From an uncultured Chloroflexia bacterium (GTDB lineage: Bacteria > Chloroflexota > Limnocylindria > QHBO01), in contig CAVXEH010000002.1 in the NCBI GenBank assembly GCA_963760875.1, positions 336,258-400,257 on the forward strand: 64,000 nucleotides of DNA. The letters run 5' to 3'. The translations under genes were made by a program, and so were the position numbers. Position 1 is the first letter of the stretch. Each line of letters opens with the position of its first letter. Positions 15,028 through 40,564 of the stretch are shown piece by piece. The notes beneath the pieces were generated by a model that was not told the DNA's origin, searched no databases, and saw only the letters and a list, made by a program, of their open reading frames with translations.

Positions 15028-15059
15028 CGAGGCGCCACCCGGCGCCCGGAGGCACGCGG

Positions 15060-20997: not shown

Positions 20998-21095
20998 CCG
21001 GTCCTAGCGCTGTGCTATCCCACGTGAAGGCCTGAGCGAAACCAGCTCAATTATGCGCTCTTCCCGATCGTCGCTCCTCGCCCATCAGACGAGGT

Positions 21096-22202
21096 CTACC
21101 CTGGCAGGTCGTCCTTCACGCGCGCGATGGAATCATTGCGGTCAGGCCCCCTCGGGACAGCTCCTGCGGATAAACCCGGCTGGGACAGCATGTCATCAGC
21201 GAAGTGGCACGCGGCGAAAGTCCCACCAGACGTTTGCCTCAGCTCGGGTTCCTCGACCACGCATCGCTCGGGTCGTCCAAGGCGCTCCCGCAGCCAGCAT
21301 CGTGTGTGAAACCGGCAGCCTGAGGGTGGATTGGCAGGGCTTGGGACGTCACCAACGAGGATGATTCGACGCCGCTTGCGTTCAACGAGGGGGTCCGGAA
21401 TTGGGATGGCGGACAACAGAGCCGCCGTGTAGGGATGAGCCGGATGCGCGAACAGTTGGTCTCGAGGCCCAATCTCCGCCAGACGGCCGAGATACATGAC
21501 TGCGACCCTCGTGCAAACCTGTCGGACGACGCCAAGGTCGTGAGCGACAAACAGCAGGGTCGTATTGAACTCGCGCTGGAGGTCCTGCAGGAGATTCAGG
21601 ATTTGCGCCTGAATGCTCACATCCAAGGCAGATACAGGCTCGTCTAGCACCACGAACTCGGGACGTAGGATGAGCGCTCTCGCTATGCCTATGCGCTGAA
21701 GCTGACCTCCAGAGAACTCGTGCGGGTATCGGCGCGCGGAAGAACTGGGAAGGCCGACTGTCTCCAGGATCTCGGCGATCCGCCTGCGCCGTTCGGAACC
21801 ACTGCCGATGTCGTGGATCTCAAGCGGTTCGCGGACTATGTCGCCAACTGCCATCCGCGGATTGACGCTCGCATATGGATCCTGGAAGACGATCTGAGCG
21901 TGGCGTCGCATCTCCCGCAGCGGGCGGCCGCGCAGGCGTACAACGTCTTGCCCCATGATCAATACCCGACCAGCCGTGGGCTTGCGGAGCCGCAGGATGG
22001 AGCGACCGAGCGTGCTCTTCCCGCATCCGGATTCGCCGACGAGACCGAGGATCTCTCCTCGGGCGACTGAGAACGAGACCCCGTCGACTGCGCGAACGTA
22101 GCCTCCGACGCGCTGTAGGAGTCCGCGCCTGATCGGGAAATGCACCCGCAAGTCCTGCACGTCCAGAACTGGGGGGCCGTCGCCGTGGTCGGCGGCGTTC
22201 AT
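21096..22202 (-). CDS. Oligopeptide/dipeptide ABC transporter ATP-binding protein (DppF/OppF-like)
   Basis: Walker [10 protein letters not shown]; signature [15 protein letters not shown]; Walker [13 protein letters not shown]-terminal oligopeptide-transporter extension ([12 protein letters not shown]). The start is ambiguous ([10 protein letters not shown] or MNAADHG). Confidence 0.8.
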
Positions 22203-22203
22203 C

Positions 22204-23313
22204 TCACCGGCCAGCATTGTCGCCCCCTCCACTAGCTGCATCTGCACCGACAGACGCTATGTCCACATGACATTCGATAACGTGCTCCGCGGCGGCTTCG
22301 CTTGCCGAGCGTGGCGCAGGCGCCTCTACCCTGCAGCGCTCGATCGCGTGCGCGCACCTCGGCTCGAATGGGCAACCGACAATGCGTTCGACCAGGTTCG
22401 GCGGGAAGCCGTCGATGGCGGTAAGACGATTAGGACGCGGCCGGTCGATTCTTGGCACGGACTCCAGCAGCGCCTCGGTGTACGGATGCCTGGGGGTGTG
22501 AAAGAGGCTGCGGGCCTCCGCAGACTCCACCACTCGACCGGCATACATCACGCAAACGCGGTCAGCGAGACCCGCTACCACGCCCATGTCGTGGGTGATC
22601 AGGATGGTGGACATGTGCAGTTGATTTGTGAGTTCCGCGATGAGCTCCAGGATCTGCGCCTGGATCGTGACGTCCAGTGCCGTTGTCGGCTCGTCGGCGA
22701 TCAGCAAGGATGGCTCGCAACTAAGCGCAATCGCGATCATCACCCTCTGACGCATCCCACCAGAGAACTGGTGCGGGTAGTCGGCCAACCGCGACCTCGG
22801 GCTAGCAATACCAACCATGCCGAGTAAGTCGCTGGCTCGCTTGGCGGCTGCAAGCTGGGACATTCCCATATGGCGGATCAGCGGCTCAGTGATTTGCCTG
22901 CCGATGGGCATGGCGGGATTCAAGGATGTCATCGGGTCCTGGAAGATCATCGCGATCTCGTTACCCCGGATGGCGCGCATCTCCGTGTCGCTCAACTTGA
23001 GGAGATCTCGACCCTTGAAGGCGATCGATCCTGCCGTGATTCGTGCGGGGGGCGACGGAAGCAGCCGCATCACCGAGAGAGCTGTCACGCTCTTCCCAGA
23101 GCCAGATTCACCAACCAAGCCGAGCGTGCCTGCTCGCTGAACATCCAGAGTCACGCCGTTGACTGCACGCACGGTCCCGGTTGGACTGGCAAACCGGACC
23201 TCGAGCTCACGGACCTGCAGCAGGGAGTTCGATCCCGATGCGGCCGGCACCAATGTCGCCGGGCTAGCCACCGGCCGCCCCGACGAGAAGACCGGACGAG
23301 GGCCGAGGCTCAC
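22204..23313 (-). CDS. Oligopeptide/dipeptide ABC transporter ATP-binding protein (DppD/OppD-like)
   Basis: Walker A GESGSGKS; signature [15 protein letters not shown]; Walker [12 protein letters not shown]; C-terminal HPYTEALL motif. Confidence 0.8.
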
Positions 23314-24379
23314 TGCCCCTTGTCGCGAGCCCTTCCACCGTCTCCGCCAGATGGGCCATCGAGGCGGGCATCGGCAGGAACGTTAGTTCGATGCATACGG
23401 CGCCAGCGGGCGCTGCGGCTCTTGCGGCTGTGGTCGTGCCGAGGGTGTGCAGGACGACGTCTCGACCCTTCATGACCCTACGAAGCGCAGCGGAGTCGGT
23501 GTCACTCGTTGAGATGATGCCTCCCTGATGACCCCTGATCTGCTCCACCAGCGATCTCGTGTTCGAGAGGAACTCGCGCTCCCCGATCAACCCTACCCTC
23601 GCCTCATCTGGAAGCGAAATCAGCGTTCTCTTTGTCTCCTCGCTCAGTTCCACCATGAGGCCGTAGACGGGGATGTCGCGGTCCTTCCCAAGTGCGCGTG
23701 CCTTCGCAAGCGTCGACACGAGGCTCACAATCAGGTCCACCGGCAACAGCGCGTCTAGAGCGCCGACACCGTCCCGGGCAACGGTCGGCAGCGGCAGGCC
23801 CGTCACCTCGACGGGAGTCCGAACCAGGCCCGACCGAAGGAGGGGCACATATTTGTCCACCGAATCCTGGCGCGCGCCGATGAACAAGACGCGCGCGCGA
23901 CCCTCGTCGTGGATTTGCCCGTCCGCCAGCAGCCGCACGGCTGTGGCGATCTCCGCTGCCGAGAACCCGGCGGCTCGCGCGTGAAGAACGGCCGGGAGCA
24001 ACGCATCGCGGAGGGCCGTTGCCCGTCCTGCGGGACCGGGGGCCGTATGGCGGGGGTCTAGCGTGGCGACAAATACGCCGCGGCCAGCCTCACCGCTCAG
24101 ATGACCCTCGCTCTGCAACTCGGCATACGTCCGCTGGACAGTCGCGGGCGAGATGAGCAGCTGTCGACTGACTCGGCGGACGGAAGGCAGTCGTGCTCCA
24201 ACAGGCAACCTACCCGTCGAAATCGCATGGATGAGGTGGTACTTAAGCTGTTGATAAAGGGGGACGGGGCTGCCACGGTCGAAAACGGCACTGAACAGGA
24301 CCCACTCTCCCGGGTGGCTCGGGGCTGGATTCGGTTCAGCGGCCGCCGAGGCGGCGAGATGTTTGCGCGCGCGAGTCAT
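23264..24379 (-). CDS. GntR-family transcriptional regulator with C-terminal ligand-binding domain
   Basis: N-terminal wHTH LPSVRRVSRQLLISPATVQRTYAELQSEGHL. The 3' end overlaps the upstream ATPase ORF, so exact ends are uncertain. Confidence 0.55.
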   Translation of the reverse strand: MTRARKHLAASAAAEPNPAPSHPGEWVLFSAVFDRGSPVPLYQQLKYHLIHAISTGRLPVGARLPSVRRVSRQLLISPATVQRTYAELQSEGHLSGEAGRGVFVATLDPRHTAPGPAGRATALRDALLPAVLHARAAGFSAAEIATAVRLLADGQIHDEGRARVLFIGARQDSVDKYVPLLRSGLVRTPVEVTGLPLPTVARDGVGALDALLPVDLIVSLVSTLAKARALGKDRDIPVYGLMVELSEETKRTLISLPDEARVGLIGEREFLSNTRSLVEQIRGHQGGIISTSDTDSAALRRVMKGRDVVLHTLGTTTAARAAAPAGAVCIELTFLPMPASMAHLAETVEGLATRGSEPRPSSGLLVGAAGG

Positions 24380-25278
24380 CGGTCTGGCTCTCCCGAACTT
24401 CGAAGGCGTGGGTCCAGAACGTCACGCAGGCCATCACCGAGGAGGTTGAACCCGAGCACAGTTAGGAACAGGGCCACACCAGGCACAAGGACAGGCCACG
24501 GTGAGACCTGCAAGAAGGGTTTGCCGCGACTCATCATGTCCCCCCATGACGGTGTCGGCGGCTGGATTCCGAGACCAAGGAAGCTAAGCGATGCCTCAAT
24601 CAAGATCGCGTAGGCGAGGCTCACGGTGACTTGGACAATGATCGGAGCGAGGATGTTAGGCGCAATGTGTCGGCGGAGGAGCCGAAGGTCTGATGCGCCG
24701 AGGGCACGCGCTGATTCCACGTAGGGTTCGGCGGCAACGGCAAGAGCAGAGCCACGCGCCACACGGGCAAACGCCGGCACGTACACGATGACCAGCGCGA
24801 TAACTAGGTTCTGCAAGTCCGTCCCCAGCAGGGCAACCATCAGGAGGGCGAGCAAAACCGCTGGGAACGCAAAGATCACGTCCATCAGCCGCATCAGAAT
24901 CGTATCGACCCAACCGCGGTAGAAGCCGGCCAGCATGCCGATGGCCACTCCGAGCACGGAGGCAACGGCGATCGAGCTCAGGCTAATGAGTACAGAGACC
25001 CGGGCGCCGTACAGTACGCGGCTAAGGAGATCGCGACCAAGATCGTCAGTGCCAAGCCAGTAGGGAGCGCCCGGCGTCACCAGCCTGGCGTCCGCGTGGA
25101 TAGCTACAGGATCGAACGGCGCCAGAAATGGCCCTACTACGGCAGCCAAGACAATACTGGTTACGAACAACGCACCCAACGCAGCAGCCCTGTCGTGGAG
25201 CAAGCGCCCGATGCTGCCTCCTCGGCGCGGGCCTTGCTCGGCCGTCGTCGCATGCTCGGTGGCGACGATCTCAGCCAT
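24376..25278 (-). CDS. ABC peptide transporter permease (DppC/OppC-like)
   Basis: Six TM segments and the EAA-type loop ESARALGASDLRLLRRHIAPN. Confidence 0.85.
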   Translation of the reverse strand: MAEIVATEHATTAEQGPRRGGSIGRLLHDRAAALGALFVTSIVLAAVVGPFLAPFDPVAIHADARLVTPGAPYWLGTDDLGRDLLSRVLYGARVSVLISLSSIAVASVLGVAIGMLAGFYRGWVDTILMRLMDVIFAFPAVLLALLMVALLGTDLQNLVIALVIVYVPAFARVARGSALAVAAEPYVESARALGASDLRLLRRHIAPNILAPIIVQVTVSLAYAILIEASLSFLGLGIQPPTPSWGDMMSRGKPFLQVSPWPVLVPGVALFLTVLGFNLLGDGLRDVLDPRLRSSGEPDR

Positions 25279-26215
25279 GCCGAAGCCTCGGATTTAGGTA
25301 GAGATAGAGCAGATCTACAGCGAAGTTGGCAGCTACGAAGAAGAGGGCGAGGGCCAGTACCGCTCCTTGGACAAGCGGGTAATCACGCTGGATGATAGCG
25401 TTGACGATCAGGGTTCCCAGTCCGGGCCACGAGAAGATCTTCTCGACAATGACCGCTCCTCCGAGCAGGAACCCAACCTGGATACCCACCACCGTTACCA
25501 CAGGGATCAACGCATTGCGTAGCGCGTGGCTGATGGCGATTCGACGTTCCCCCAGTCCCTTCGCGCGGGCCGTCCGAACGTAGTCCTGCCGCAGGACCTC
25601 GAGCATAGATGAGCGCGTCATGCGCATGACGATGGCTGCCATCGCAGTTCCTAGCGTGACTGTCGGGAGGATGAGGTACCGCAGGTGCACGAGGGGGCCA
25701 GCGCCCCACGGTTGATAGCCCCCTGACGGCAGCCAGTGGAGCGTCACGGCGAACAGCAGAATCAGCAGCACACCCAAGAAGAAGTTAGGCGTAGACAGCC
25801 CCAGCAGCGAAACGACGCGCACGCTGTAGTCCCAAGGTGTGTTTCTTCTCGTCGCGGAAACGATCCCTGCCGGAATGGCAATCACCAGCGACAGTAGCAG
25901 CGCGCTGATCGTCAACTCCAGTGTGGCGGGAAACCGAGACAGAAGCTCTCCCATCACCGATCGTCCCGTGACCAGCGAGGATCCGAGGTCGCCGTGGAGG
26001 AGCCCACCCGCCCAATGTAGGAACTGCACGTGTAGGGGTAAGTTCAGGCCGAACAAATTGCGCATCTGCTCGGCGACCTTGGGGTCGTAGTACTCGTTGA
26101 GAAGAATATCGACGACATCGCCTGGGACCAGTCGCATTGCGAGAAACGTGATCAGCACGATTCCGCTCGCCACAAGGATGAGGCTGATTAGCCTTCCAAG
26201 GATGAGTCGGATCAC
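25271..26215 (-). CDS. ABC peptide transporter permease (DppB/OppB-like)
   Basis: N-terminal MIRLILGRLISLILV, multi-TM, and EAA loop RTARAKGLGERRIAISHALRNA. Confidence 0.85.
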   Translation of the reverse strand: MIRLILGRLISLILVASGIVLITFLAMRLVPGDVVDILLNEYYDPKVAEQMRNLFGLNLPLHVQFLHWAGGLLHGDLGSSLVTGRSVMGELLSRFPATLELTISALLLSLVIAIPAGIVSATRRNTPWDYSVRVVSLLGLSTPNFFLGVLLILLFAVTLHWLPSGGYQPWGAGPLVHLRYLILPTVTLGTAMAAIVMRMTRSSMLEVLRQDYVRTARAKGLGERRIAISHALRNALIPVVTVVGIQVGFLLGGAVIVEKIFSWPGLGTLIVNAIIQRDYPLVQGAVLALALFFVAANFAVDLLYLYLNPRLRHG

Positions 26216-27300: not shown

Positions 27301-27349
27301 GGGAGGTGTGGAGCGTGCGGGGGCAATGGCCCCCGCACACCGACTGGCC

Positions 27350-28966
27350 CTATTGGTCGAGCCAAACGTCTCGCAGCTGACGGTAAGAGATCAACTGCGG
27401 GTTGAAGACATAGCCCTTCACGTAGGACTGAGTCGCGTCGAACTTGTAGTAGTTGTAGAGGAAGGCGTATGGGCCGACCTCGGCCAGGCGCGACTGCGCC
27501 TGGGCGTACAACTCAGCTCGCTTCGCGCGGTCGGTGGTTTGCCGCGCCTCAGTGGCAAGCTGCGTGACTTGGTCATCACTGAAGTGCGCCCAGTTCGTAC
27601 CTCCTCCGGGCAGGAAGGTCTGCTGGAAGCGCTCGTCTGGATCGATGGTTCCTGAAAAACCGAGCACCTGTGAGTCAAAAGCGGCGTCGGAGGTCAGGTC
27701 CGGAGCAGACCACTGGGCTGCCATCTGGCCAGCATCCATAATCTGCACCTTGGCGTCGATCTTCAGAGGCTTCAACTGTTGCTGGATCGCCTGAGCCGTG
27801 CAGTTCTGGAAGTCCCATCCGGTGAGACTGTTGATCTGGAAGCTAAAGCCGTTGGCATAGCCAGCATCCGCTAGGAGCTGTCGGGCTTTATCAAGATTCT
27901 GCTGGTACTTGACCTCCTTGTTCGCTGCCCAATACGTCGGCGGCAGAAAGCCTGCATTCAGAACGTTGGACATCCCCGGCATGCACAGGTCCGCCAACTG
28001 CTGGCGATCAAGAGCCCAGTAGATCGCCTGGCGAACGCGAACATCGTCAAAGGGCTTCTTGTTCGGGTTCATCAAGAAGTACAACCAGCTCATCTGGCCC
28101 TGAGGCATGTACACGTCGACGGACGAGTCGTCTTGGAGTGTCTTCAGCATGGGCGCGGGACCGTCATAGAGAAAATTGACGTCACCCGCCTGCAACGCAG
28201 CGGATCGAGCGTTGTCGTCGGCGTTGAAGGTGAAGGTAATGCCCGCGAGGTGTGGCTTACCCGCGTCCCAGTATTCGGGGTTCGCGACGAGCTTCACGGA
28301 CTGCCCCTGCGTCCAGCTCTCAAGCTTGAACGCTCCGGTTCCGACTGGATGCTTGAAGAAGTTCGCGTCTCCGACAGCGGAGCAAGGGACAATGCCTGCT
28401 GTGATGTCGGCGAGCGCCGACAAGAGCGGCGAGAAGGGTTCCGACAGCTGGATTACCACGGTCTGATCGTCGGAGGCGGTGACCTGTGACACGGACGAGT
28501 ACAGACTTGCGCGCGGCGACTTGGTGGACGGATCCATGATGCGGTCGATCGTGCACTTGACGTCCTTGGCAGTCATATTCGTGCCATCATGGAACTTCAC
28601 GCCCTGACGAATGTGGAATGTGTAGGTGAGGTTGTCCGGAGAGATATCCCAACCGGTCGCAAGGCTCGGGGTGATGGTGCCGTCCGGCTGAATTTCGGCG
28701 AGCGAGTCGAACATCTGCTGTGAGATCACGAAGCCCGTCGAGAATGTGAGGATTGCTGGGTCAAACCCCTGCCCCTCGTCCTGCTTGAGCAGTACGTTCA
28801 GGGTCCCCCCGTTCTTTACCTGGCTTGCACTGGCCGAGGCCGAGGCCGCGCCCGATGCCGCCTGCGAGGCTGATTGGCTTTCGCCGGCCGACCCACAGGC
28901 ACTGACCAGGATCGCGATAACGAACAGCACGAGAGCTGTCCGAACTGATCCACCGCGGTAAGTCAT
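27350..28966 (-). CDS. ABC transporter substrate-binding lipoprotein, family 5 (peptide-like ligands)
   Basis: Lipobox VSACGS, a low-complexity Ala/Ser linker, then typical SBP_bac_5 blocks. 538 aa. Confidence 0.85.
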   Translation of the reverse strand: MTYRGGSVRTALVLFVIAILVSACGSAGESQSASQAASGAASASASASQVKNGGTLNVLLKQDEGQGFDPAILTFSTGFVISQQMFDSLAEIQPDGTITPSLATGWDISPDNLTYTFHIRQGVKFHDGTNMTAKDVKCTIDRIMDPSTKSPRASLYSSVSQVTASDDQTVVIQLSEPFSPLLSALADITAGIVPCSAVGDANFFKHPVGTGAFKLESWTQGQSVKLVANPEYWDAGKPHLAGITFTFNADDNARSAALQAGDVNFLYDGPAPMLKTLQDDSSVDVYMPQGQMSWLYFLMNPNKKPFDDVRVRQAIYWALDRQQLADLCMPGMSNVLNAGFLPPTYWAANKEVKYQQNLDKARQLLADAGYANGFSFQINSLTGWDFQNCTAQAIQQQLKPLKIDAKVQIMDAGQMAAQWSAPDLTSDAAFDSQVLGFSGTIDPDERFQQTFLPGGGTNWAHFSDDQVTQLATEARQTTDRAKRAELYAQAQSRLAEVGPYAFLYNYYKFDATQSYVKGYVFNPQLISYRQLRDVWLDQ

Positions 28967-28994
28967 GTGCCGACTCCTATCGTTCCTTCGCCCC

Positions 28995-30194: not shown

Positions 30195-31413
30195 CTCCCG
30201 CCGGGCCACGCACCACGCGTCCCTTCTGCACGATCAGGATTGGCGCGTCGAGGCCGTCCAGGTTCACGCTTGCGTCTCCACGGACCGCGATGACGTCGGC
30301 TTCTCGGCCAGCCGCCAGCGATCCAATCGCAGACTCTGCTCCCAGGATCTCGGCGCCAACTCGGCTCGCGGCCTCTATGGCCGCCACATTCCCCAAGCCG
30401 AGGGCAGCGAGCAACTTGATCTCGCCTGCCAGGTTCTCATGAGGATTGAAAGGGCTGCCGCCATCCGTCCCAGCGGCTAGGCGAACTCCCTCGGACAGTG
30501 CGAATCGGACCGCCTGTTGCGATAGCTCCTGTGATCGCCGCACATATTCCATCCACCCCACAGAAGTCTTGGTGCGCTCCTCCTCACGCAGCACCGCTTC
30601 ATGCACGGAAAGGGTTGGGACAATCGCGACGTCGCGTTCTGCCGCCATTGCTGCCAATGGCTGATCGAGCGCATACCCGTGCTCGATCACGTCGACACCC
30701 GCCTCGATCACTGCGCGGATCGTGGCCGGAGCGATGGCATGGGCCGTGACGCGCCGCCCCAGCTGGTGCGCTGCGTCGATCACAGCCCTCAGTTCAGATT
30801 GGGACAACGCGGGTCGCGCGACGTCGAGGGCGCCGTCGCTCGTTCCTCCGTCCGCCATCACCTTGACGAAATCCGCTCCCGCCTTCAGTTGCAGGCGAGT
30901 TGCATGCCGGAAACCATCAGCTCCGTTGGCTTCGATGCCGATGGAGTAAGCATGTCCTCCGGTCGCACATATCAGTGCTCCGGCCGCAAAGACTCGGGCG
31001 CCTGGGAGAACCCCATCCGCAATCGCTCGCCTCAACGCGAAGATGCCGGGGTCGGCCGCACCTACATCACGCACAGCAGTGACCCCGGCGAGGAGGCATG
31101 TCTGCGCACGCCCGGCAGCGGCCAGGATGCGATCGGCCTCGGAGCCGTCATTGACCCGCTTGGGACGCTCGACGTCCAGATGGCTCACGGTGAGGTGGAC
31201 GTGGCTGTTGATCAATCCAGGGAGGATCGTCGCGTCCCCGAGATCCACCGAGGTGACAAATGCACCGTCATAGCCTTCGATCCGGGGCCCTGCGTATTCC
31301 AGTGCTTCGCCATTCACTACGACTGCCGCGTCGTGAACAACCCCGCCCAGACCAGTGATCAAGTGAGCCGCCAGATAGGCGGTGGGTCCAGGGGAGCCTT
31401 CAGCCCGCGTCAC
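30172..31413 (-). CDS. Amidohydrolase-family metal-dependent hydrolase (second paralog)
   Basis: ILPGLINSHVHLTV (HxH), a KAGADF block and an HAxxxxxI block. The track start (31578) would overlap the upstream gene by 168 bp; a start near VTRAEGS (GTG ~31413) is more plausible. Confidence 0.65.
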   Translation of the reverse strand: MTRAEGSPGPTAYLAAHLITGLGGVVHDAAVVVNGEALEYAGPRIEGYDGAFVTSVDLGDATILPGLINSHVHLTVSHLDVERPKRVNDGSEADRILAAAGRAQTCLLAGVTAVRDVGAADPGIFALRRAIADGVLPGARVFAAGALICATGGHAYSIGIEANGADGFRHATRLQLKAGADFVKVMADGGTSDGALDVARPALSQSELRAVIDAAHQLGRRVTAHAIAPATIRAVIEAGVDVIEHGYALDQPLAAMAAERDVAIVPTLSVHEAVLREEERTKTSVGWMEYVRRSQELSQQAVRFALSEGVRLAAGTDGGSPFNPHENLAGEIKLLAALGLGNVAAIEAASRVGAEILGAESAIGSLAAGREADVIAVRGDASVNLDGLDAPILIVQKGRVVRGPAGDVNAAAA

Positions 31414-32474
31414 GGCAGTTCGTCCCCTCGCAGTATCCGCGTGCCTGGTGCTGTCGTGTCCACCATTAGATAGGCCCAATCGCCAGGCCGGACGGGGTAC
31501 GGGCGGGCTACCATATCGACCAGGCCGGGGACTGGCGCGCGAAGCTCCTCCAGTAGTGAGAAGGAATAGGGACTCCAAACAGTCCCCAGGAGCTCACCCG
31601 GTTCGACTCTGACCTCCATGAGTGCGTCTGGCGCAAGAACGGGCTCCAAAATGCCACCGACGGTTGGGTTGACTCGGCGTACGGCATCAAAGACCACTAT
31701 CTCGTCGGCCACAGTAGGGGCACCGGGCAGCATCTCGAGTTCGCGCATTACCCCTCGGACGCCGGACAGATTCCGCTGCAGCCATGTCTCTTCCAAGGCA
31801 GGGTCGAAACCGGCGCCTCCGACTTCGGAGATGATGCCGGGGATGCCCAGCACCTGCCCGGCGTAGCCGATCATGCTCTTAGGGCCAGGGAACTTGGTTG
31901 CGAGGTCCCCCCGTCGCACATGAGCCAGCCCAAATGCCCGGGCGAGTTCGTACGAACGGCGCGAGACGGCGGGGTCCACAAAATCGCGCCCACATGTCAC
32001 GGAACCCATCGCCGCACCCCAGAGCCCGCTGTGGAAGTCAATGACCGCGTCCGCCACCGAGAGGACACTCGCGCTGATCACCATCGCCATCTGGTCGGCG
32101 AGCCACGCCTGCACACCACCGAACGAGCGATTGAGGTCCGGACTGTCGGACTCGTCCACGATATTGCGCGTGCCGCTGGCAAACGCAATCGGGTTGGCCA
32201 CGGGGATCAACAGAAGGGTTCCCGCCAGATCCTTGGGGGTAACCTGGTTCGCCAGAGCGAGGAGCACGTCTGTTGCGAGCCACTCGCCTCCGTGTAGTCC
32301 CGTCACAACTGCGAGAGTCGGGCCAGACTGGGCTCCGGCTACCACGTGAACATGGAGGGACACAATCGAACCGTCGAGGTCCGTTACCATTGGGATCGCC
32401 ACATGGCCTGCCTGTCCGGGTTCGAAGCGGCGCCCACCCAGTTCAATGCCTTGTGTCGGCGCATTTGTGCTCAT
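31410..32474 (-). CDS. Succinylglutamate desuccinylase/aspartoacylase (AstE/AspA, M14-like zinc deacylase) family protein
   Basis: LHGGEW zinc-ligand block and overall AstE_AspA pattern. Start at MSTNAPTQG gives an ATGA overlap with the upstream paralog. Confidence 0.65.
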   Translation of the reverse strand: MSTNAPTQGIELGGRRFEPGQAGHVAIPMVTDLDGSIVSLHVHVVAGAQSGPTLAVVTGLHGGEWLATDVLLALANQVTPKDLAGTLLLIPVANPIAFASGTRNIVDESDSPDLNRSFGGVQAWLADQMAMVISASVLSVADAVIDFHSGLWGAAMGSVTCGRDFVDPAVSRRSYELARAFGLAHVRRGDLATKFPGPKSMIGYAGQVLGIPGIISEVGGAGFDPALEETWLQRNLSGVRGVMRELEMLPGAPTVADEIVVFDAVRRVNPTVGGILEPVLAPDALMEVRVEPGELLGTVWSPYSFSLLEELRAPVPGLVDMVARPYPVRPGDWAYLMVDTTAPGTRILRGDELP

Positions 32475-33568: not shown

Positions 33569-33622
33569 TATTGGCGTCCGGAACCGCTTTTGTCAAGTCT
33601 CTCGCCGCGATCGCGGACCACC

Positions 33623-34390
33623 TCAGGGACTCTGGCGAATCTCCGAAATAACCTCGTCCGCGGTGGAGACACGGCAGAATGGCGACGAGGACTTGATGCC
33701 AACGTCATGGATTTCTGGGGTCACGTCAGCGCACCCGTCCTCAACCAAGACACAGTCGAATCCTCGATCCGCGGCGTCGCGCAGGGTTGACTCGACGCAG
33801 TAATTCGTCGCTACTCCACAGAACACCAGTTCCCTGGACCCCAGATTCCATAGCAAACGCTCGAGCGGCGATGCAGTGAATCCACTGGCCCCGGTCTTGG
33901 CCAGGACCGGCTCTCCAGGAAGCGGAGCGATCGACTCCAGGACCTGCATCTCGCGACTCCCCAAGACAGCGTACGGAGGGTTGAGCCCCCGTTCCGTCCA
34001 ATGGTCAGCCGCTCTTCGGAATCGCGGCGGCATGTCTGACAGGTCTCCGACGACCGATCCGACCGTCAGAAAGATCACGGGCGCGCCGACGTCCCTGAAT
34101 GTGCCTTGAAGCCGCTGGACGCTAGGCACGACAACACGCTCGATCCGCTCGTTGTAGGCATCCACTAGGTCGGCGTAGCCGATAGCACGGAAGACATTTG
34201 CGAAGCCATATCCATCGGCGGCGCTGCCGTACTGAAGGTCCACAAGAATCAGGGCCGAAGTCGCAGGCCGCAGACGGAAATCGTTCATCCGGCGTCGATA
34301 GGCAAACAGTGCTTCGGCGGCATCGGTTCGAGTTGGGTCGAGGCCGATTTCGCCCTCTCTATCGTGGGCACTTCGAACATCCGTCGTCAT
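33623..34390 (-). CDS. Isochorismatase-family cysteine hydrolase
   Basis: ALILVDLQYG (catalytic Asp block) and CGVATNYCVEST (catalytic Cys). Start likely MTTDVRS (ATGA overlap with the dipeptidase). Confidence 0.7.
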   Translation of the reverse strand: MTTDVRSAHDREGEIGLDPTRTDAAEALFAYRRRMNDFRLRPATSALILVDLQYGSAADGYGFANVFRAIGYADLVDAYNERIERVVVPSVQRLQGTFRDVGAPVIFLTVGSVVGDLSDMPPRFRRAADHWTERGLNPPYAVLGSREMQVLESIAPLPGEPVLAKTGASGFTASPLERLLWNLGSRELVFCGVATNYCVESTLRDAADRGFDCVLVEDGCADVTPEIHDVGIKSSSPFCRVSTADEVISEIRQSP

Positions 34391-35454
34391 CGCCAAACCT
34401 CCTCGAACACTCGTCTGAAGTTGCCACCGAGGATCCCTTGAAGGTCCTCGTCGCCGAAACCGATGTCGGCCAGCGCTTCGGCAATGCGAGGCATGTCCTC
34501 GCAACTCCCGGCGCCTTGAGCGAACCGCGTGTCGTATCCGTACCAGTCGCCCATAAGGCCGGCAACGGTGGGGTATCTGCCCGCGCGTCCGTAGAGCTCA
34601 TCCCACGCGTGACGCGGATGGCCCTCGGAGTGGTCCGAGCCAATGCCCACGTGTCTCGGCCCGACCAGCTCCACAACGTGCTCAACGTGCCGAAGGAAGT
34701 GGGTGATGGCAGGCCACTCTCCGTCACCACCTACCATTGGCGACCAGAAGGTCAAACCAATCACGCCGCCCCGCCGCTTCAGCGCATGGAGAACTTCGTC
34801 GTTCACGTTTCGCGGGCTGTCGAAGACCGCGCGTGCATTGGCGTGCGAGACGATGACCGGCCGCGCGGACACCTCGATCGCCTCGAGCATCGTCGTCTCG
34901 TGGGCGTGCGAAAGATCCACAACAACGCCCATCGCGTTGAGCTGCTTCACCAGGTGCTGGCCCCGAACCGTCAGCCCTCGTGCTCTCGACACCGTGCAGC
35001 CGTCGCCGAAGACATTTCTCTCGTTGTAGGTCAGCTGGACGATTCGAACACCGTGCTCATACAAGGTCTCCGCAGCGTCCGCGGACTCCGCAAGCGGCAG
35101 CGCGTTCTGTGGGCCGAAGATCAGCCCAACGCGGTCGGTTGCCTTCGCGACATCGAGATCCCTACCGCGCTCGATTAGCAGCAGTCTGTCAGGTCGTGCG
35201 GCGATGAACTCCCGCGCCGCCTGAATTTCATGCAGGGCTTGGCGCAGCCCGGCGTGGGGGGAGCACACCGTCCAGTTGAAAGCCGTAACCCCCGAACGGA
35301 GCATGCGATCGACGTGCTCTTCATCCATGGTAGGTGCGACCGATCCGTCGATGACGACGGATGCCTCATATAGGGAAGAGCCGCCGGAAGAACCGCCGTT
35401 GGAACGTTTAACCGTGGGCTCGCTGTTTGCCAATGCTGGCCTCCACCGCGACAC
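34387..35454 (-). CDS. Membrane dipeptidase (peptidase M19 family)
   Basis: HVDRMLRSGVTAFNWTV, VVDLSHAHETT and IVSHANARAV are M19 hallmarks. Confidence 0.75.
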   Translation of the reverse strand: MSRWRPALANSEPTVKRSNGGSSGGSSLYEASVVIDGSVAPTMDEEHVDRMLRSGVTAFNWTVCSPHAGLRQALHEIQAAREFIAARPDRLLLIERGRDLDVAKATDRVGLIFGPQNALPLAESADAAETLYEHGVRIVQLTYNERNVFGDGCTVSRARGLTVRGQHLVKQLNAMGVVVDLSHAHETTMLEAIEVSARPVIVSHANARAVFDSPRNVNDEVLHALKRRGGVIGLTFWSPMVGGDGEWPAITHFLRHVEHVVELVGPRHVGIGSDHSEGHPRHAWDELYGRAGRYPTVAGLMGDWYGYDTRFAQGAGSCEDMPRIAEALADIGFGDEDLQGILGGNFRRVFEEVWR

Positions 35455-35457
35455 GAG

Positions 35458-37050
35458 TCATCCGCTTGCTGCAATCACTGTCGGGCGACCATTCACAATC
35501 ACGGCCTCGATTCCGGACGGATGCATAGTCGGCGATCGCCAGTCTGCCGACGCACCAATCTCATCCGCCTGAAATACCACCAGATCCGCATGCGACCCTG
35601 GCCGGATCTCCCCTCGCCCACCCAGCCGCAAGGCCCGGGCCGGTCCGCCAGTGAGCCGGTGAGCGGCCTCCCCGATGGTCAACAGACGTCGATCGCGAAC
35701 GAAATGACCCAGCAGCCGACCGGTTGAACGGAAATGGCGGGGATGTGGCTGCATCGTGTTCCAAGGCTCACCCACGCGCGAGGGCGATGTCGCAATCGCG
35801 TCCAGCCCCAGGTAGCTGTGTGGCCATCGAGCGACGGTCTCTACGTCGGCCTCGGAAAGCCTCCTGTGAAGAAGCATCAACGCTTGCCCCTCCTCAGCTA
35901 CCAGCCGAAGCAGGAGGTCAACTGGCGATACACCCGCCACCCCCGCGGCTGACACAAGGTCGAGCCCGCGCAGGGCGACATTCGGTCCGCTCGAGTCGCA
36001 ATCCTCAATCGTCACGTCGGCCCAATCCGAGAAGACCAGGTACTCCGCGTAGAAGCCCTGCCTCGGAGCGCGTCGGCGGCGTTCGATTACACTGGCCAGC
36101 GCTGCGCGTGCATCTCGATCGAAGAGCGTCCTCTGCAGCGACGACCAGTCTGGGCTGCGCCAGTCCCAGACCTCCGGGGGAAAGATCGCACGCATTCCAT
36201 CCCACGCTCCGACGGTCGGCCACAGCAAGAGATCGGTTGAGGTCTCCGCCCCTTCTGCCCGTGCGTCGTCGAGAAGCGCCAACGCCTCGCCCACGCTCCC
36301 CCACGCGGGCCTTCCGAAGGCATGCAGCAGCGAGACATGCAGTCGGCATCCCCCTCGTCTCGCAAGCTCAAGGGCTTCCATCACAGCTGTCAGAAGATGC
36401 TGCCCGTAGTCGCGTAGGTGAACCACGAGGAGCGCGTCGTGCCGACCCACAAGTTGCGACACCTCAAGCAACTCAGCTTGGTCCGCATGAAGGTCAGGCT
36501 CGAAGTGGAGGCCGAGCGAAACGCCTGCGGCGCCCGCCTCCAAGCAGGCGTCAACGTGGGTGCAGATGGCGGCGCGCTCCGTGTCCGTTGCCGGACGGTT
36601 GGGCGTGTCGCCCATGCACGCACGGCGGACTGTGCCCAGGCCGACAAGCAGCACAGGATTCACGGCGAGTGAGGCGGGCAGCCGACTGCGATAGTCCGCC
36701 ATGGATTCCCACTCGGCAGAAATGCCGTCGGGGTCGAACTTGCGCAAAGTGGAGCCGCCCGGAAGCGGGAAGGCGGATGACCCGCAGTTTCCGAGAACCT
36801 GAGTCGTTATACCTTGGGCAACGAGACTCTCGGCGGAGGGATTGAGCACGAGAGAGATATCGGAATGACCGTGCATGTCAATGAAACCAGGCGCGACGGC
36901 GCACGCGGTGGCGTCAACAACGACGGCGCCATCGAGGGCGTCGGCGGTCACGACCTCGACCCTATCGCCGATGACGCCTACATTCGCGGCGAAGCCATTG
37001 CTCGCAGTGCCGTCGAGCACAACGCCGCCGGCGACGACAAGGTCAAACAT
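35458..37050 (-). CDS. N-acyl-D-amino-acid deacylase (D-aminoacylase, amidohydrolase-3)
   Basis: PGFIDMHGHSD...GITTQVLGNCGSSAFP signature of D-aminoacylases. 530 aa. Confidence 0.8.
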   Translation of the reverse strand: MFDLVVAGGVVLDGTASNGFAANVGVIGDRVEVVTADALDGAVVVDATACAVAPGFIDMHGHSDISLVLNPSAESLVAQGITTQVLGNCGSSAFPLPGGSTLRKFDPDGISAEWESMADYRSRLPASLAVNPVLLVGLGTVRRACMGDTPNRPATDTERAAICTHVDACLEAGAAGVSLGLHFEPDLHADQAELLEVSQLVGRHDALLVVHLRDYGQHLLTAVMEALELARRGGCRLHVSLLHAFGRPAWGSVGEALALLDDARAEGAETSTDLLLWPTVGAWDGMRAIFPPEVWDWRSPDWSSLQRTLFDRDARAALASVIERRRRAPRQGFYAEYLVFSDWADVTIEDCDSSGPNVALRGLDLVSAAGVAGVSPVDLLLRLVAEEGQALMLLHRRLSEADVETVARWPHSYLGLDAIATSPSRVGEPWNTMQPHPRHFRSTGRLLGHFVRDRRLLTIGEAAHRLTGGPARALRLGGRGEIRPGSHADLVVFQADEIGASADWRSPTMHPSGIEAVIVNGRPTVIAASG

Positions 37051-38023
37051 CCCCAATGCGGCCACACTTCACGCACCATTCGCCGGTCTGGATCGTGGCG
37101 GTGTGGCGGATGTCGGTGATGACCGAACGAAACGGGGCTCGGATCTCCTCGACTACCTCTCCTAGGAGATTGCGCACGAACCCCACGGGCTCTCCACGTT
37201 CCACGGTGTCACCCAGGTCGACCACCTGCTCAAAGAAGCCGCCGTGCTGGGGCCGCGGCCATTCGGACTCTCGGCAGACGTACTGGCTTCCGTCGTCCGG
37301 CGGTGCACCACCAGCGAGCACGCCTAGCCCGCGCAGCACACGTCTGGCACCCACCACACCCGCCTCGACGAAATCGTCGCGAAGGGTTCCACCTCCGCCC
37401 AACTCAATGCCAAGCGCCGACTTGCCAGCTGCGCGGGCCTGGACAGTGATGGCTCCCGTCCGTGCCAGACGCCGCTGTTCCTCTGTCACAGAAACGGCAG
37501 TTATCGGGATGCCTTGTCCAAACCAGCGTGCCAGCTGCAGGTCGCGATCGATCTTCTCCCGGTCGTCTTGATCGGTGCCGACTATCAGGTAGCGAGCGAT
37601 GAAGTCGCGCCCGCCCTCGTGAAAGTCCATCCATACGTCTGACGCCAGAACGCCGTCCTGATAGATGAGATGAGCGAGCCGCTCCATTTGAAATCCGCGC
37701 TCGTTCCCGGGGAAGACACGATTGAGGTTGAGGCGCTCGTATTCGAGTTGGCTTGCCCGTGTGCCGGTGAGAAGAGCAAACGGATTGGCAACGGGCAGCC
37801 CGATGAGTGCGCCGGTGACGTCGAGCGGGTCGAGTTCGTCGAACAGACGGTTCACGACAGCGAAACCGTTGTACTCATCCCCATGGAGCATGGCGCTCAT
37901 GCCGACGAGCGGCCCAGATTGGGCGCCGGCAAGGAGCCGAACGGGCATACTCACTTGCGCGCCGGACGCGAGCTCACCGATCACGCACCAGCCGCTGGTC
38001 TTAGCACTCGGCGGACAGAACAT
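37043..38023 (-). CDS. AstE/AspA-family zinc deacylase (third paralog)
   Basis: MLHGDEYNGF zinc-ligand block. The track ORF extends to 38185 but the probable start is MFCPPSAK. Confidence 0.6.
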   Translation of the reverse strand: MFCPPSAKTSGWCVIGELASGAQVSMPVRLLAGAQSGPLVGMSAMLHGDEYNGFAVVNRLFDELDPLDVTGALIGLPVANPFALLTGTRASQLEYERLNLNRVFPGNERGFQMERLAHLIYQDGVLASDVWMDFHEGGRDFIARYLIVGTDQDDREKIDRDLQLARWFGQGIPITAVSVTEEQRRLARTGAITVQARAAGKSALGIELGGGGTLRDDFVEAGVVGARRVLRGLGVLAGGAPPDDGSQYVCRESEWPRPQHGGFFEQVVDLGDTVERGEPVGFVRNLLGEVVEEIRAPFRSVITDIRHTATIQTGEWCVKCGRIGDV

Positions 38024-38136
38024 TCCGAAAGCGGACAAGCCAGCGCTCTTCACTCGGACTCCCAGCTGTGTGGCTGTAGTAGTACAGTTATCATCGGTGC
38101 GGAGGGACACAGGTGTCAATGCCTTCTGAGGACCAC

Positions 38137-38898
38137 ATGTTGTCGATCGACTTGAACGGCGACGTCGGCGAGAGCTACGGCACATGGAGTCACGGGCAGG
38201 ACGACGAACTGATCCCGCTGCTCACATCAGCCAACCTTGCATGTGGCTTCCACGCTGGCGACCCCCTGACGATGCGGCGTACAGCAGCAATCGCGCTTGA
38301 ACACGGCGTGGCAATCGGCGCGCACCCGGCCTACCCCGACCTCGTCGGCTTTGGCCGCCGGGACCTCGAGATGCAGGATCGCGAGCTCGAAGCGGCCGTC
38401 CTCTACCAGATCGGTGCGGCGGCGGCCATCGTGCGCTCCGTTGGCGGCCATCTCACACATGTCAAGCCGCACGGGGCGCTCTACAACCGTTCCGCCCGGG
38501 ATCCCCGGGTGGCCAGGGCGGTCGCTCGCGCAGTTGCTGCGGCTGACCAGCACCTCGTGCTAGTTGGCTTGGCTGGATCGCAATCCATCTCGGAGGCCGG
38601 AGCGCTCGGGCTTCGCACCATCGCAGAAGCGTTCGCAGATCGCCGCTACGAGGCCGACGGCCGCTTGCGATCGCGGAAATTCCCAGGCGCTGTGATGTCG
38701 GACCCAGAAGAGGTATGTCAGCAGGCCCTTCAAATCGTCGCTGGCAGCATCCATTCAGTAGATGGGGCCACCGTTGCCATTTCAGCCGCGACCATCTGCC
38801 TCCATAGCGACACTCCGGGAGCCGCAGACCTGGCACGCCAAGTCCGCAGCGCCCTCCTCGACGCAGGAGTTGCTCTGGCGGCCCCTTACTCAGCGTGA
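38137..38898 (+). CDS. pxpA: 5-oxoprolinase subunit A (LamB/YcsF family)
   Basis: SIDLNGDVGESYG...LLTSANLACGFHAGDP...IGAHPAYPDLVGFGRR are LamB/YcsF blocks. Confidence 0.8.
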   Translation: MLSIDLNGDVGESYGTWSHGQDDELIPLLTSANLACGFHAGDPLTMRRTAAIALEHGVAIGAHPAYPDLVGFGRRDLEMQDRELEAAVLYQIGAAAAIVRSVGGHLTHVKPHGALYNRSARDPRVARAVARAVAAADQHLVLVGLAGSQSISEAGALGLRTIAEAFADRRYEADGRLRSRKFPGAVMSDPEEVCQQALQIVAGSIHSVDGATVAISAATICLHSDTPGAADLARQVRSALLDAGVALAAPYSA

Positions 38899-39557
38899 GC
38901 CGCTACCCGGTCATCGCTCCTTTTGGCGACGGCGCCGTGCTGATCGTCCTAGGTGACAAGATCGATGTTGCGCTGAATGCCAAAGCACACGCGATGGCGG
39001 CGGCCGTGGCAGATGAGCGCGTGAAGCATCCGGAATGGGGCCGGCCTGTTGTCGGCTTCGCGAGCATCCTGCTCCGGTACGACCCGCTTACCGTACCGTG
39101 GCACGCAGCCCGACGGTTCGCGAGGTTGCTCCTGACCGTCGAACCATCCGTCTCGCCCAAAGGCAGCGGCCCGATTGTTATCCCCGTCCGTTACGGGGGC
39201 GCGGACGGACCCGACCTTGATCAGGTGGCAGAGCGACTTGGCCTCAGCTCGGCGGACGTCGTGGAGATGCACTGTGGGCAGGAGTACCTGGTGTTCTGCA
39301 TCGGCTTCTCGCCCGGCTTTCCCTACCTCGGAATGCTACCGCCGGCACTGAGCCTTCCCCGCCGAGACCGACCCCGAACGCGCGTACCGGCTGGCTCGGT
39401 CGCCATCGCTCGGCGGCAAACGGCCATATATCCACTGCCGACGGCGGGCGGTTGGCATCTCATCGGGCGCACGAACCTGCCCCTGTGGGCTGCTGATCGC
39501 GACCCCCCCTCACTGTTGCGTCCAGGTCAGAGCGTGCGATTCGTAGCAGATCGATGA
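38895..39557 (+). CDS. pxpB: 5-oxoprolinase subunit B (allophanate hydrolase subunit 1/KipI-like)
   Basis: EYLVFCIGFSPGFPYLG and AIARRQTAIYPLPTAGGWHLIG are conserved PxpB blocks. ATGA coupling with pxpA. Confidence 0.8.
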   Translation: MSRYPVIAPFGDGAVLIVLGDKIDVALNAKAHAMAAAVADERVKHPEWGRPVVGFASILLRYDPLTVPWHAARRFARLLLTVEPSVSPKGSGPIVIPVRYGGADGPDLDQVAERLGLSSADVVEMHCGQEYLVFCIGFSPGFPYLGMLPPALSLPRRDRPRTRVPAGSVAIARRQTAIYPLPTAGGWHLIGRTNLPLWAADRDPPSLLRPGQSVRFVADR

Positions 39558-40564
39558 CCGACCTGCTGGAAGTCATCTCGAGCGGACCCCTTGCTACGAT
39601 TCAGGACGCCGGCCGCCCAGATTTCACCGATATCGGCGTGCCACACGGCGGCGCCTGCGATCCACTCTGCCATGTAATCGCCAACGCCCTCGTCGCCTGT
39701 CCGCCGGAAGCACCGGTCATCGAGATCGCAGGTGGAGGCTTTCGGGCGCGCGCGCTGGAAGCCTGCATAGTCGCCGTCGCGGGTGTCAACGTTCACCTCG
39801 CCGTGACCGGACGGGCAGCGATGCGAGCGAACCGGGGGGTCTATCTCCATCGTGGCGACGTCCTTGAAGTCGTGGTGAATCCACATAGCGGCCTTCGGAG
39901 CTACATGGCAATTCAAGGCGGTTTCCAGGTGGCACAGGTCCTTGGATCTGCCTCGGCCTACCCGTTAGCGGGCTTCCCGGGGCTGGCGGGGAGGAGCCTA
40001 GAGTCCGGAGACCGACTTTCGGCCAAACCGGGGCGGTCGGCGTACCTCCCTCCGCTGTCTTGGCCGGACTCCGGCCCTCAGCCCCAACTACCTGACAGTC
40101 CTCTCCACGTACTGACCGCACCAACCAAGTCGTACTTCTCCTCGGCGGCTTTACGTTCATTTGCCGCTGACGAGTTCAAAGTCACCGAGCATGCCGACCG
40201 GACGGGTATCCGGCTGACCGGCGGAAACTTGCGGCCGTCCTTCGAGCTAGGGGAGCCCGTTTCGTACGGAATGGTGCGCGGTGCGGTCCAAGTCTCGAAC
40301 GACGGCACTCTCATGCTACTGATGCCTGATCACCCAACCATAGGTGGCTATCCGGTAATCGGGGTTCTGACCTCTGTCGATATTCCCATGGCTGCTCAAC
40401 TTAGGCCAGGCGACAGCGTGAGATTCTCACCGATGCCATTGGCCGAGTCGCAGCGCCTGCTCACAGAACGGGACTCGGAGCTTCGGAACGCGATAGCCGA
40501 ATTGGGCCGAGAGGACTACCAATGGTCGGAGCTTCTGGAGGATGCGGGAATGCCTGGAATGTAG
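39554..40564 (+). CDS. pxpC: 5-oxoprolinase subunit C (allophanate hydrolase subunit 2/KipA-like)
   Basis: ISSGPLATIQDAGR...GVPHGGACD N-terminus and C-terminal MPDHPTIGGYPVIGV are typical of PxpC. Coupled to pxpB. Confidence 0.8.
   Translation: MTDLLEVISSGPLATIQDAGRPDFTDIGVPHGGACDPLCHVIANALVACPPEAPVIEIAGGGFRARALEACIVAVAGVNVHLAVTGRAAMRANRGVYLHRGDVLEVVVNPHSGLRSYMAIQGGFQVAQVLGSASAYPLAGFPGLAGRSLESGDRLSAKPGRSAYLPPLSWPDSGPQPQLPDSPLHVLTAPTKSYFSSAALRSFAADEFKVTEHADRTGIRLTGGNLRPSFELGEPVSYGMVRGAVQVSNDGTLMLLMPDHPTIGGYPVIGVLTSVDIPMAAQLRPGDSVRFSPMPLAESQRLLTERDSELRNAIAELGREDYQWSELLEDAGMPGM

Follow-up and report, generated by a model that had tools for sequence, protein, structure and literature searches.

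Which substrate is taken up and degraded by a 19-kb island of transporter and hydrolase genes in an uncultured Chloroflexia bacterium, and do the genes serve a single pathway? The island (21096-40564; 18 genes) lies in a stretch of 64,000 nucleotides (hereafter the window; contig CAVXEH010000002.1, positions 336,258 to 400,257, of assembly GCA_963760875.1) and encodes three zinc deacylases of the AstE/AspA family (AstE1, AstE2 and AstE3), a Dpp/Opp-type ATP-binding cassette (ABC) importer, further amide-cleaving enzymes and the 5-oxoprolinase PxpABC. Our most informative result, drawn from the comparison of gene neighbourhoods, is an apparently specific association between AstE3 and ATP-dependent lactamases. 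We propose, with a confidence somewhat short of even, that the island is an acquired catabolic operon which would import small N-blocked or atypical peptides or N-acyl amino acids and hydrolyse them fully to amino acids, with AstE3 yielding 5-oxoproline for PxpABC.

The AstE/AspA-type deacylases and their lactamase partners

The deacylase and 5-oxoprolinase genes are as follows (ORF, open reading frame).

31410-32474 (ORF to 32513), minus strand: AstE1, a DoeB-like (COG3608) zinc deacylase; AstE_AspA_cat 69.1 bits; start placed as in P0070
32471-33568, minus strand: AstE2, paralog of AstE1, which it overlaps by 4 nt; AstE_AspA_cat 57.2 bits
37043-38053 (ORF to 38185), minus strand: AstE3, a DoeB-like zinc deacylase, first gene of the minus-strand operon; AstE_AspA_cat 93.5 bits; identical to P0001
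38113-38898, plus strand: PxpA (LamB/YcsF), 5-oxoprolinase subunit A; LamB_YcsF 314.5 bits; the likelier start is the ATG at 38137
38895-39557, plus strand: PxpB, 5-oxoprolinase subunit B; CT_C_D 211.2 bits
39554-40564, plus strand: PxpC, 5-oxoprolinase subunit C; CT_A_B 245.7 bits

A lactamase, either PxpABC or HyuAB, is encoded near AstE3 in four of the five AstE3 lineages with enough flanking sequence, compared with none of 80 distant COG3608 loci (hypergeometric p ~2.5e-6). This outgroup consisted of 80 listed genome-contig loci with COG3608 genes 26-33% identical to AstE3 and no close AstE3 relative among the matches listed; Pxp, Hyu and family-5 substrate-binding protein (SBP5) genes were found in none of them and an isochorismatase gene in one. 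PxpABC and HyuAB are unrelated in sequence, both carry out ATP-dependent lactam hydrolysis, and 5-oxoproline is their common known substrate. In the related loci L007 and L008 (Ardenticatenaceae) the AstE3 ortholog is accompanied by SBP5 and ABC genes and then by HyuA and HyuB, this HyuA being nearest to N-methylhydantoinase (7hk5) and caprolactamase and more distant from the family's carboxylases, and in L092 a HyuB-like gene sits beside a pair of AstE3 orthologs. Pyroglutamate had been only one of several substrate options in the initial annotation, and the recurrent link between AstE3 and a lactamase gives it specific support.

The same recurrence bears on the possibility, which we consider improbable, that the island is no single pathway but an accreted mosaic of broad-specificity hydrolases for general peptide nutrition, with pxpABC as neighbouring housekeeping genes for the repair of 5-oxoproline damage. 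The accessory hydrolase set does vary among related clusters, pxpABC is transcribed divergently, outside the operon, and 5-oxoprolinases of this type are widespread and act on spontaneously formed 5-oxoproline (PMC13274462). However, the lineages in which AstE3 orthologs recur with a lactamase of one or other unrelated family are only 41-49% identical, the outgroup count is 0/80, the isochorismatase-like gene of the island co-travels at 52-74% identity, and pxpABC has the low GC content at third codon positions (GC3) that marks the rest of the island.

The nearest characterised relative of AstE3 is DoeB/EutE (PDB 6twl/6twm), the N-alpha-acetyl-L-2,4-diaminobutyrate deacetylase of ectoine catabolism, which belongs to the same COG3608 subgroup, shares the HxxE, H and catalytic E residues and, like AstE3, has a cyclic-amide-opening enzyme as its genomic partner. 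AstE3 is, however, only 25% identical to DoeB and scores 94 bits against a cutoff of 402.7 with the DoeB model TIGR02994; its partner is an ATP-dependent lactamase and not an M24 ectoine hydrolase, and the transporter is of the SBP5 peptide type and not of the Ehu/Ueh type. DoeB acts directly after a ring-opening hydrolase, which favours an alternative order of steps following the DoeA/DoeB logic: the lactamase would open an imported cyclic amide, such as a diketopiperazine or a peptide lactam, and AstE3 and the dipeptidases would then cleave the linear product. This order would also agree with a lactamase type that is interchangeable (Pxp or Hyu) beside a constant AstE3, with a peptide-type importer, and with dipeptidases of varied specificity (two of them prolidase-like) plus a D-aminoacylase, a set suited to diverse cyclic dipeptides. 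We nevertheless regard it as rather unlikely. PxpA and PxpB score as ordinary 5-oxoprolinase subunits and pass the NCBIfam cutoffs (PxpA subfamily, 333 bits against 226; PxpB equivalog TIGR00370, 184.5 against 145.55), and a literature search found no report of PxpABC or HyuAB action on diketopiperazines; we know of no such enzyme. A related pairing, of an ATP-dependent cyclic-amide hydrolase with an isochorismatase-family amidase, is found in the creatinine/N-methylhydantoin route (HyuAB followed by N-carbamoylsarcosine amidase), which differs from the island in that creatininase and sarcosine oxidase are absent here, the constant partners are a deacylase and a peptide importer, and the lactamase in the window is PxpABC.

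Although three AstE/AspA paralogs are indeed present, as initially annotated, they do not represent one expansion. AstE1 and AstE2 are 45% identical to each other and either is ~28% identical to AstE3, and the trio consists of two old lineages rather than the products of a recent triplication. The lineage of AstE1 and AstE2 is widespread: at least 219 clusters belong to it, among them Dactylosporangium, Euzebya, Armatimonadota and Acidimicrobiia. In every context examined (the window, L004, L097 and L098) AstE2 lies directly upstream of AstE1 with an overlap of 4-8 nt. This conserved pair may act together, possibly as a hetero-oligomer; to our knowledge an obligate heteromeric deacylase has not been described in the AstE/AspA family. 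AstE3 forms a separate small clade: when 1.84 billion representatives were searched exhaustively with phmmer, 4625 family members came up, and only ~9 of them exceeded 200 bits, followed by a continuum of distant relatives. Nor is the threefold set unusual, as had been supposed. Multi-copy AstE sets recur in related clusters, so the multiplicity is typical of this cluster family and not peculiar to the window; L001 has three tandem AstE3-type genes (8945-12065), an independent triplication in which each copy is 47-49% identical to the AstE3 of the window, and repeated copy-number expansion seems to be a property of the AstE3 clade. The AstE3 pair in L092 is likewise arranged in tandem. Plasmid searches with AstE3 and AstE1 gave no match above 34% identity; on the Cytobacillus oceanisediminis plasmid NZ_CP062791.1, five separate places match a COG3608 deacylase at ~29% identity, a strong multiplication of the family.

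All three paralogs exceed the AstE_AspA_cat (PF24827) cutoff of 25 bits. Five positions, comprising the zinc ligands HxxE...H, the substrate Arg and the catalytic Glu, are intact in AstE1, AstE2 and AstE3 and are invariant or nearly so across 102 AstE1-type, 23 AstE2-type and 25 AstE3-type sequences, and none of the three paralogs is a pseudo-enzyme. An alignment-based AlphaFold2 model of AstE3 (predicted local distance difference test score 94.5) has the two-domain carboxypeptidase-like fold. Its template-modelling (TM) score is 0.81 to DoeB (6twm), 0.80-0.82 to the uncharacterised COG3608 structures 3cdx and 3na6, and 0.71-0.76 to CphZ; true AstE structures superpose poorly (0.52-0.54), as does rat aspartoacylase (0.50), and the fold of MpaA is only distantly similar (rank 40).

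That the paralogs carry out a characterised reaction of their family, as the succinylglutamate desuccinylase of the arginine succinyltransferase pathway, aspartoacylase, DoeB or CphZ, is effectively excluded. Pfam membership, weak matches to the DoeB model and a fold nearest to DoeB would fit such a role, but the TIGR02994 scores are 53.8, 70.3 and 94.4 bits against 402.7, no curated AstE or AspA model matched any paralog at E<=1e-5, and the 18 island genes include no M24 DoeA/EutD, Ehu-type transporter, astABCD, cyanophycinase or cyanophycin synthetase. CphZ shares 15-16% identity, and the matches to 3fmc and 3lwu were weak and confined to the N terminus. Clustering with characterised enzymes had been set beforehand as the test of the initial annotation, and the paralogs do not so cluster. 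From the low model scores and the structural comparison of AstE3, they are members of the superfamily that lie outside any characterised family. CphZ (PDB 8ein) is an AstE/AspA-fold dipeptidase for non-standard (beta-Asp-Arg) peptide bonds and thus a precedent for such activity (PMC9974463); it shares the zinc triad of the island paralogs and differs in belonging to another subfamily (M14_PaAOTO-like), and the island has no cyanophycin context.

Gene content, module structure and control region

The remaining island genes are listed below.

21096-22247, minus strand: ABC ATPase, DppF/OppF-like; ABC_tran 113.7 bits, oligo_HPY 61.4 bits; 56% identity to the ortholog in Dactylosporangium (L097)
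22204-23313, minus strand: ABC ATPase, DppD/OppD-like; ABC_tran 92.7 bits, oligo_HPY 70.9 bits
23264-24379, minus strand: GntR-family regulator, between the permease and ATPase genes; GntR helix-turn-helix (HTH) 41.1 bits (cutoff 27), residues 41-104
24376-25278, minus strand: ABC permease, DppC/OppC-like; BPD_transp_1 117.3 bits, OppC_N 30.1 bits
25271-26215, minus strand: ABC permease, DppB/OppB-like; BPD_transp_1 150.3 bits, BPD_transp_1_N 37.2 bits
26212-27300, minus strand: luciferase-like (LLM) flavin/F420 oxidoreductase; Bac_luciferase 170.3 bits; under every NCBIfam F420/LLM cutoff
27350-28966, minus strand: family-5 substrate-binding lipoprotein; SBP_bac_5 329.2 bits
28995-30209, minus strand: Amh1, amidohydrolase-superfamily enzyme of carboxypeptidase/dipeptidase type; Amidohydro_1 130.5 bits
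30172-31578 (ORF; start probably near 31413), minus strand: Amh2, of the same type as Amh1 and 38% identical to it; Amidohydro_1 122.6 bits
33623-34390 (ORF to 34504), minus strand: isochorismatase-like cysteine hydrolase; Isochorismatase PF00857 111.2 bits
34387-35454, minus strand: M19 dipeptidase (renal-dipeptidase type); Peptidase_M19 259.5 bits; PDB relatives 2i5g and Sco3058 (3id7)
35458-37065, minus strand: DAA, N-acyl-D-amino-acid deacylase-like amidohydrolase; Amidohydro_3 87.8 bits
38054-38136: divergent control region, 83 bp between AstE3 and pxpA, with an imperfect palindrome CTGTAGTAGTACAG at 38074-38087

All 18 genes are found where the initial annotation had placed them, in the families it had named, on comparison with Pfam and the ORF list, and the mostly minus-strand layout also stands. 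Fifteen genes run from 38053 down to 21096 on the minus strand, overlapping or separated by gaps of <=54 nt, with 4-nt start/stop overlaps at several junctions (e.g., AstE2/AstE1 at 32471-32474 and M19/isochorismatase at 34387-34390); pxpA, pxpB and pxpC are adjacent on the plus strand, again with 4-nt overlaps. Unrelated metagenome contigs carry eight to ten of the minus-strand genes with conserved order and 49-74% amino-acid identity. The co-orientation, the tight spacing and this recurrence argue that the arrangement is more than chance.

The importer consists of one SBP_bac_5 protein, two BPD_transp_1 permeases and two ATPases with oligo_HPY tails, the composition of a Dpp/Opp-type system. 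The best NCBIfam models for the binding protein are GsiB (233.7 bits) and a NikA-type model (210.2 bits), both far under cutoff, and its orthologs are 69% identical in L004 and 48% in Dactylosporangium. The "second" family-5 binding protein of the initial annotation holds only if a gene outside the island is counted (1786-3711, minus strand; 265.7 bits; 25% identical to the island protein), since the island itself has one. A glutathione or gamma-glutamyl cycle, prompted by the GsiB match and by the presence of M19 together with 5-oxoprolinase, was rejected on the GsiB score (234 against a cutoff of 594) and the absence of a gamma-glutamyl transferase or cyclotransferase; an opine or metallophore importer was also rejected, as the NikA and CntA matches were far below cutoff and matching catabolic genes were absent.

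Among the hydrolases, Amh1 has as nearest solved chains the Xaa-Pro dipeptidase 2qs8, the L-Arg carboxypeptidase Cc2672 (3mtw) and ochratoxinase (4c5y). The closest structures to DAA are N-acyl-D-glutamate deacylase (3gip, 186 bits) and D-aminoacylase (1m7j, 184.5 bits; E ~1e-53), and the label D-aminoacylase given to it earlier is reasonable; it scores 138.6 bits with the NCBIfam model PRK09061 (cutoff 340), and carbohydrate de-N-acetylases score nearly as high. The characterised enzymes nearest in sequence to Amh1/Amh2, DAA and M19 (Cc2672, Bb3285 and Sco3058) have been profiled by substrate, and all act on N-acyl amino acids or dipeptides, D-residues included, by splitting off the C-terminal residue. 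Similarity to the island enzymes is moderate and the NCBIfam scores are under their cutoffs, so these specificities are not transferable. The isochorismatase-like protein is closest in PDB to 6xix, 6xjm and RutB (8bkd), of the triuret hydrolase, biuret hydrolase and RutB type; its translation contains the cysteine motif TNYCVESTLRD (expected TNxCVEST), the Asp and Lys of the triad having been judged by eye, and its orthologs are 74% identical in L004 and 52% in L001. The LLM oxidoreductase has a 49% identical ortholog at the same position in L004.

Comparison with related loci shows that two modules, each also present on its own elsewhere, are fused in the island. The Dpp-type transporter, the translationally coupled AstE2-AstE1 pair, the two carboxypeptidase-type amidohydrolases and M19 make up module A; module B has AstE3, an ATP-dependent lactamase and the isochorismatase-like cysteine amidase, to which a D-aminoacylase-like enzyme is often added. 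Module A stands alone in Dactylosporangium sp. NPDC050688 (L097), where ATPases, two amidohydrolases, an AsnC regulator, AstE2-AstE1, permeases, SBP5, an amidase-signature enzyme and M19 are found together; the two amidohydrolases and M19 are 30-38% identical to their counterparts in the window, and the other proteins 48-63%. Module B stands alone in L001-L003, with SBP5, three AstE3 genes, an ABC transporter, a GntR/FCD regulator, pxpB-pxpC-pxpA and the isochorismatase-like gene. The fused arrangement is seen again in L004-L006 and L091 (AstE3-M19-isochorismatase-AstE2-AstE1-Amh-Amh-SBP-LLM-permease, 49-74% identity). A scan of metagenome contigs with an AstE3 alignment yielded two loci. Other AstE3 orthologs adjoin D-aminoacylase-like, amidase-signature and Amidohydro_1 genes and SBP5 transporters, the DAA-type genes being adjacent also in L009, L094 and L095.

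In the control region, the palindrome CTGTAGTAGTACAG lies just downstream of a minus-strand -35/-10-like pair, TTGACA-18-GATGAT (38119-38090), and is a candidate operator of the GntR protein. It is the only TGTA-N4-TACA match in the window, one per 64 kb being about the chance expectation, and promoter-like matches are not enriched over shuffles. L004 has a different, perfect inverted repeat (CCGTACT-N8-AGTACGG) just before the AstE3 start. The C-terminal part of the GntR protein (~250-265 aa) has no Pfam match better than E=0.077, NCBIfam matches cover the HTH only, and none of the effector subfamilies FadR/FCD, HutC/UTRA, MocR and YtrA could be assigned; since this part matches no known effector domain, the protein may belong to a new GntR subfamily. 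The pxp genes of Corynebacterium glutamicum are under a GntR-type repressor that responds to 5-oxoproline (PMC13274462). As in that pxpR-pxpTABC cluster, the subunit genes of the island are adjacent and a GntR-family regulator is encoded within the cluster; in L001 a GntR/FCD gene is directly upstream of pxpBCA. In contrast to C. glutamicum, the island has no PxpT-type 5-oxoproline transporter, its pxp genes being accompanied instead by deacylases and an ABC importer for peptides; by implication, 5-oxoproline would arise inside the cell from an imported conjugate.

Proposed pathway and its alternatives

In the pathway that we favour, the Dpp/Opp-type system would import small N-blocked or atypical peptides or N-acyl amino acids. 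AstE3 would act on an N-(5-oxoprolyl)-amino acid, or on a near relative among the N-acyl amino acids, freeing 5-oxoproline or a closely related lactam acid, and PxpABC is predicted to open 5-oxoproline to glutamate at the cost of ATP. The cysteine amidase could take off a terminal amide or ureido group, and AstE2-AstE1, Amh1/Amh2, M19 and DAA would cleave the remaining amide bonds, including those to D-residues; module A may be a battery of enzymes that each split the C-terminal residue off an N-acyl amino acid or a dipeptide. All seven hydrolases belong to families that cut the amide bond beside a C-terminal amino acid. The repressor of the divergent promoters at 38.05-38.14 kb is probably the GntR protein. 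Seven amide-cleaving enzymes, a Dpp/Opp-type transporter and conserved synteny bear out the initial annotation of the genes as one coherent set for breaking down a peptide-like or N-acyl-amino-acid substrate.

The presence of M19 and DAA also raises the unlikely alternative that the operon scavenges cell-wall or D-amino-acid peptides, for example stem-peptide fragments containing gamma-D-Glu or isoglutamine. The AstE enzymes would then be MpaA-like, M19 and DAA would cut L-Xaa-D-Xaa and N-acyl-D-Glu bonds, and the amidase would remove the amide group of isoglutamine or of amidated diaminopimelate. M19 relatives such as Sco3058 (3id7) prefer L-D dipeptides, the nearest solved relative of DAA is an N-acyl-D-glutamate deacylase, the MpaA fold is a distant neighbour of AstE3, and the isochorismatase-like protein resembles hydrolases of terminal amides or ureides, all of which would suit such a role. 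The island has, however, no muropeptide-specific genes (AmpD amidase, LdcA, NagZ or epimerase), the minimal module-B clusters L001 and L007 are without M19 and DAA, and a 5-oxoprolinase has no obvious role for D-glutamate.

Several points weigh against the release of 5-oxoproline by AstE3 for PxpABC. Pcp (C15) is the usual enzyme for pyroglutamyl peptides, whose breakdown therefore does not call for one of the AstE type, and simple catabolism of pyroglutamyl dipeptides leaves the LLM oxidoreductase and the isochorismatase-like amidase unexplained. PxpC scores just under the cutoff of TIGR00724 (218.7 bits against 230.2) and well under that of another model (167 against 500). One AstE3 context (P0021) shows no recognisable lactamase within ~7 kb. 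The closest relatives of the cluster, L004 and L091, carry a CoA-transferase gene and not pxpABC upstream of AstE3, their contigs ending before the far side; judged by eye, this gene (L004 1-191, L091 1-478) looks to be of the CaiB/BaiF type. The binding proteins of distant cluster variants are only 26-30% identical, which suggests that substrates probably differ between variants. Finally, no literature was found that ties this deacylase clade to 5-oxoproline or to any substrate, and literature searches (COG3608; 5-oxoprolinase with desuccinylase; pyroglutamyl dipeptide with aspartoacylase; diketopiperazine with hydantoinase) returned no description of such a cluster.

Origin of the island and its wider meaning

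Non-coding features at and beyond the island edges are listed below.

20955-21011, plus strand: tRNA-Gly(UCC)-like stump at the left edge; Rfam tRNA 25.3 bits (gathering score 29); not called by ARAGORN
41002-41027, minus strand: tRNA-Asn-like anticodon-arm fragment of 26 nt in the non-coding stretch right of pxpC; 88% complementary to 47189-47214
41222-41254: perfect 12-nt tandem repeat TAGGGGTCAGAT, 2.8 copies, in an apparently non-coding stretch of ~1.6 kb from pxpC to the next plausible gene
46821-46892: tRNA-Gln, the only intact tRNA
47173-47229: tRNA-Asn(GUU)-like remnant, 27.8 bits (sub-threshold)

Horizontal acquisition of the island, proposed in the initial annotation, is well supported by its composition, bounding tRNA fragments and neighbours. 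GC content is 0.60-0.65 across about 20-47 kb and 0.70-0.76 on the left flank, and GC3 is 0.63-0.76 in the 18 island genes compared with 0.82-0.90 in flanking genes; since pxpABC shares the low GC3, it arrived with the island. The tRNA stumps bounding it are real, although sub-threshold: the tRNA-Gly-like stump keeps the 5' side of the acceptor, the D arm and the anticodon arm, the T arm being deleted. The left neighbour is a core arginine-biosynthesis operon (5129-17503, plus strand) with an argH-like lyase, argC, argJ, an argR domain, argG and a class-III aminotransferase. By named sequences, the ArgG of the host is nearest (~70% identity) to Candidatus Limnocylindria and Chloroflexota metagenome-assembled genomes, whereas the contigs with the most similar cluster copy carry an AstE1 ortholog to which NCBI gives the name Acidimicrobiia bacterium. 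The description of the surrounding DNA as repeat-rich was overstated: the 12-nt tandem repeat and short scattered repeats are present, and this evidence is weak. No integrase domain was found in the flanking ORFs tested, there are no matching att-type direct repeats, and the tRNA pieces present are unrelated fragments.

Other features of the flanks are recorded here in their own right. The arginine operon is followed by a 2-oxoacid:ferredoxin oxidoreductase, and the ORF after argG has a GNAT domain, many ArgG relatives being GNAT fusions of ~600 aa. An 18-nt direct repeat, TGAGTCAGATGCC(C/G)ATCC, occurs with 23 nt spacing at 46937-46977, just beside tRNA-Gln. On the other side of the same tRNA, at 44482-46693 (minus strand), a Shedu-type gene (SduA_C 59 bits) and a 334-aa ORF without a Pfam or NCBIfam match look like a small defence islet, and their GC3 (0.79-0.83) is nearer to that of the host than to that of the catabolic island. 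Immediately right of the tRNA-Asn-like remnant, at 47276-48774 (plus strand), is an AbiEi antitoxin/AbiEii nucleotidyltransferase toxin pair (type IV toxin-antitoxin).

The cluster belongs to a known kind, the catabolic operon for peptides or N-acyl amino acids; the association of a DoeB-like clade with ATP-dependent lactamases is new. Thousands of proteins are annotated as belonging to the "succinylglutamate desuccinylase/aspartoacylase family", for which only four or five activities are known. It is conceivable, though we hold it unlikely, that the AstE3 clade with its interchangeable PxpABC or HyuAB represents an undescribed two-enzyme route for a peptide-derived lactam, either by ATP-driven opening and cleavage of diketopiperazines or by dedicated hydrolysis of N-(5-oxoprolyl) amino acids with an enzyme that is unrelated to Pcp, and that AstE2-AstE1 is in addition an obligate heteromer. 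The locus and its relatives offer a concrete way into two uncharacterised clades that can be put to the test, the one being linked in independent lineages to ATP-dependent lactam hydrolysis and the other always a coupled pair, and illustrate how two hydrolase modules can fuse and move, apparently between phyla. If the pyroglutamyl or lactam link is true, it would account for the use by bacteria of N-blocked or cyclised peptides as food, on which ordinary peptidases fail, and some PxpABC systems would be catabolic rather than purely devoted to repair.

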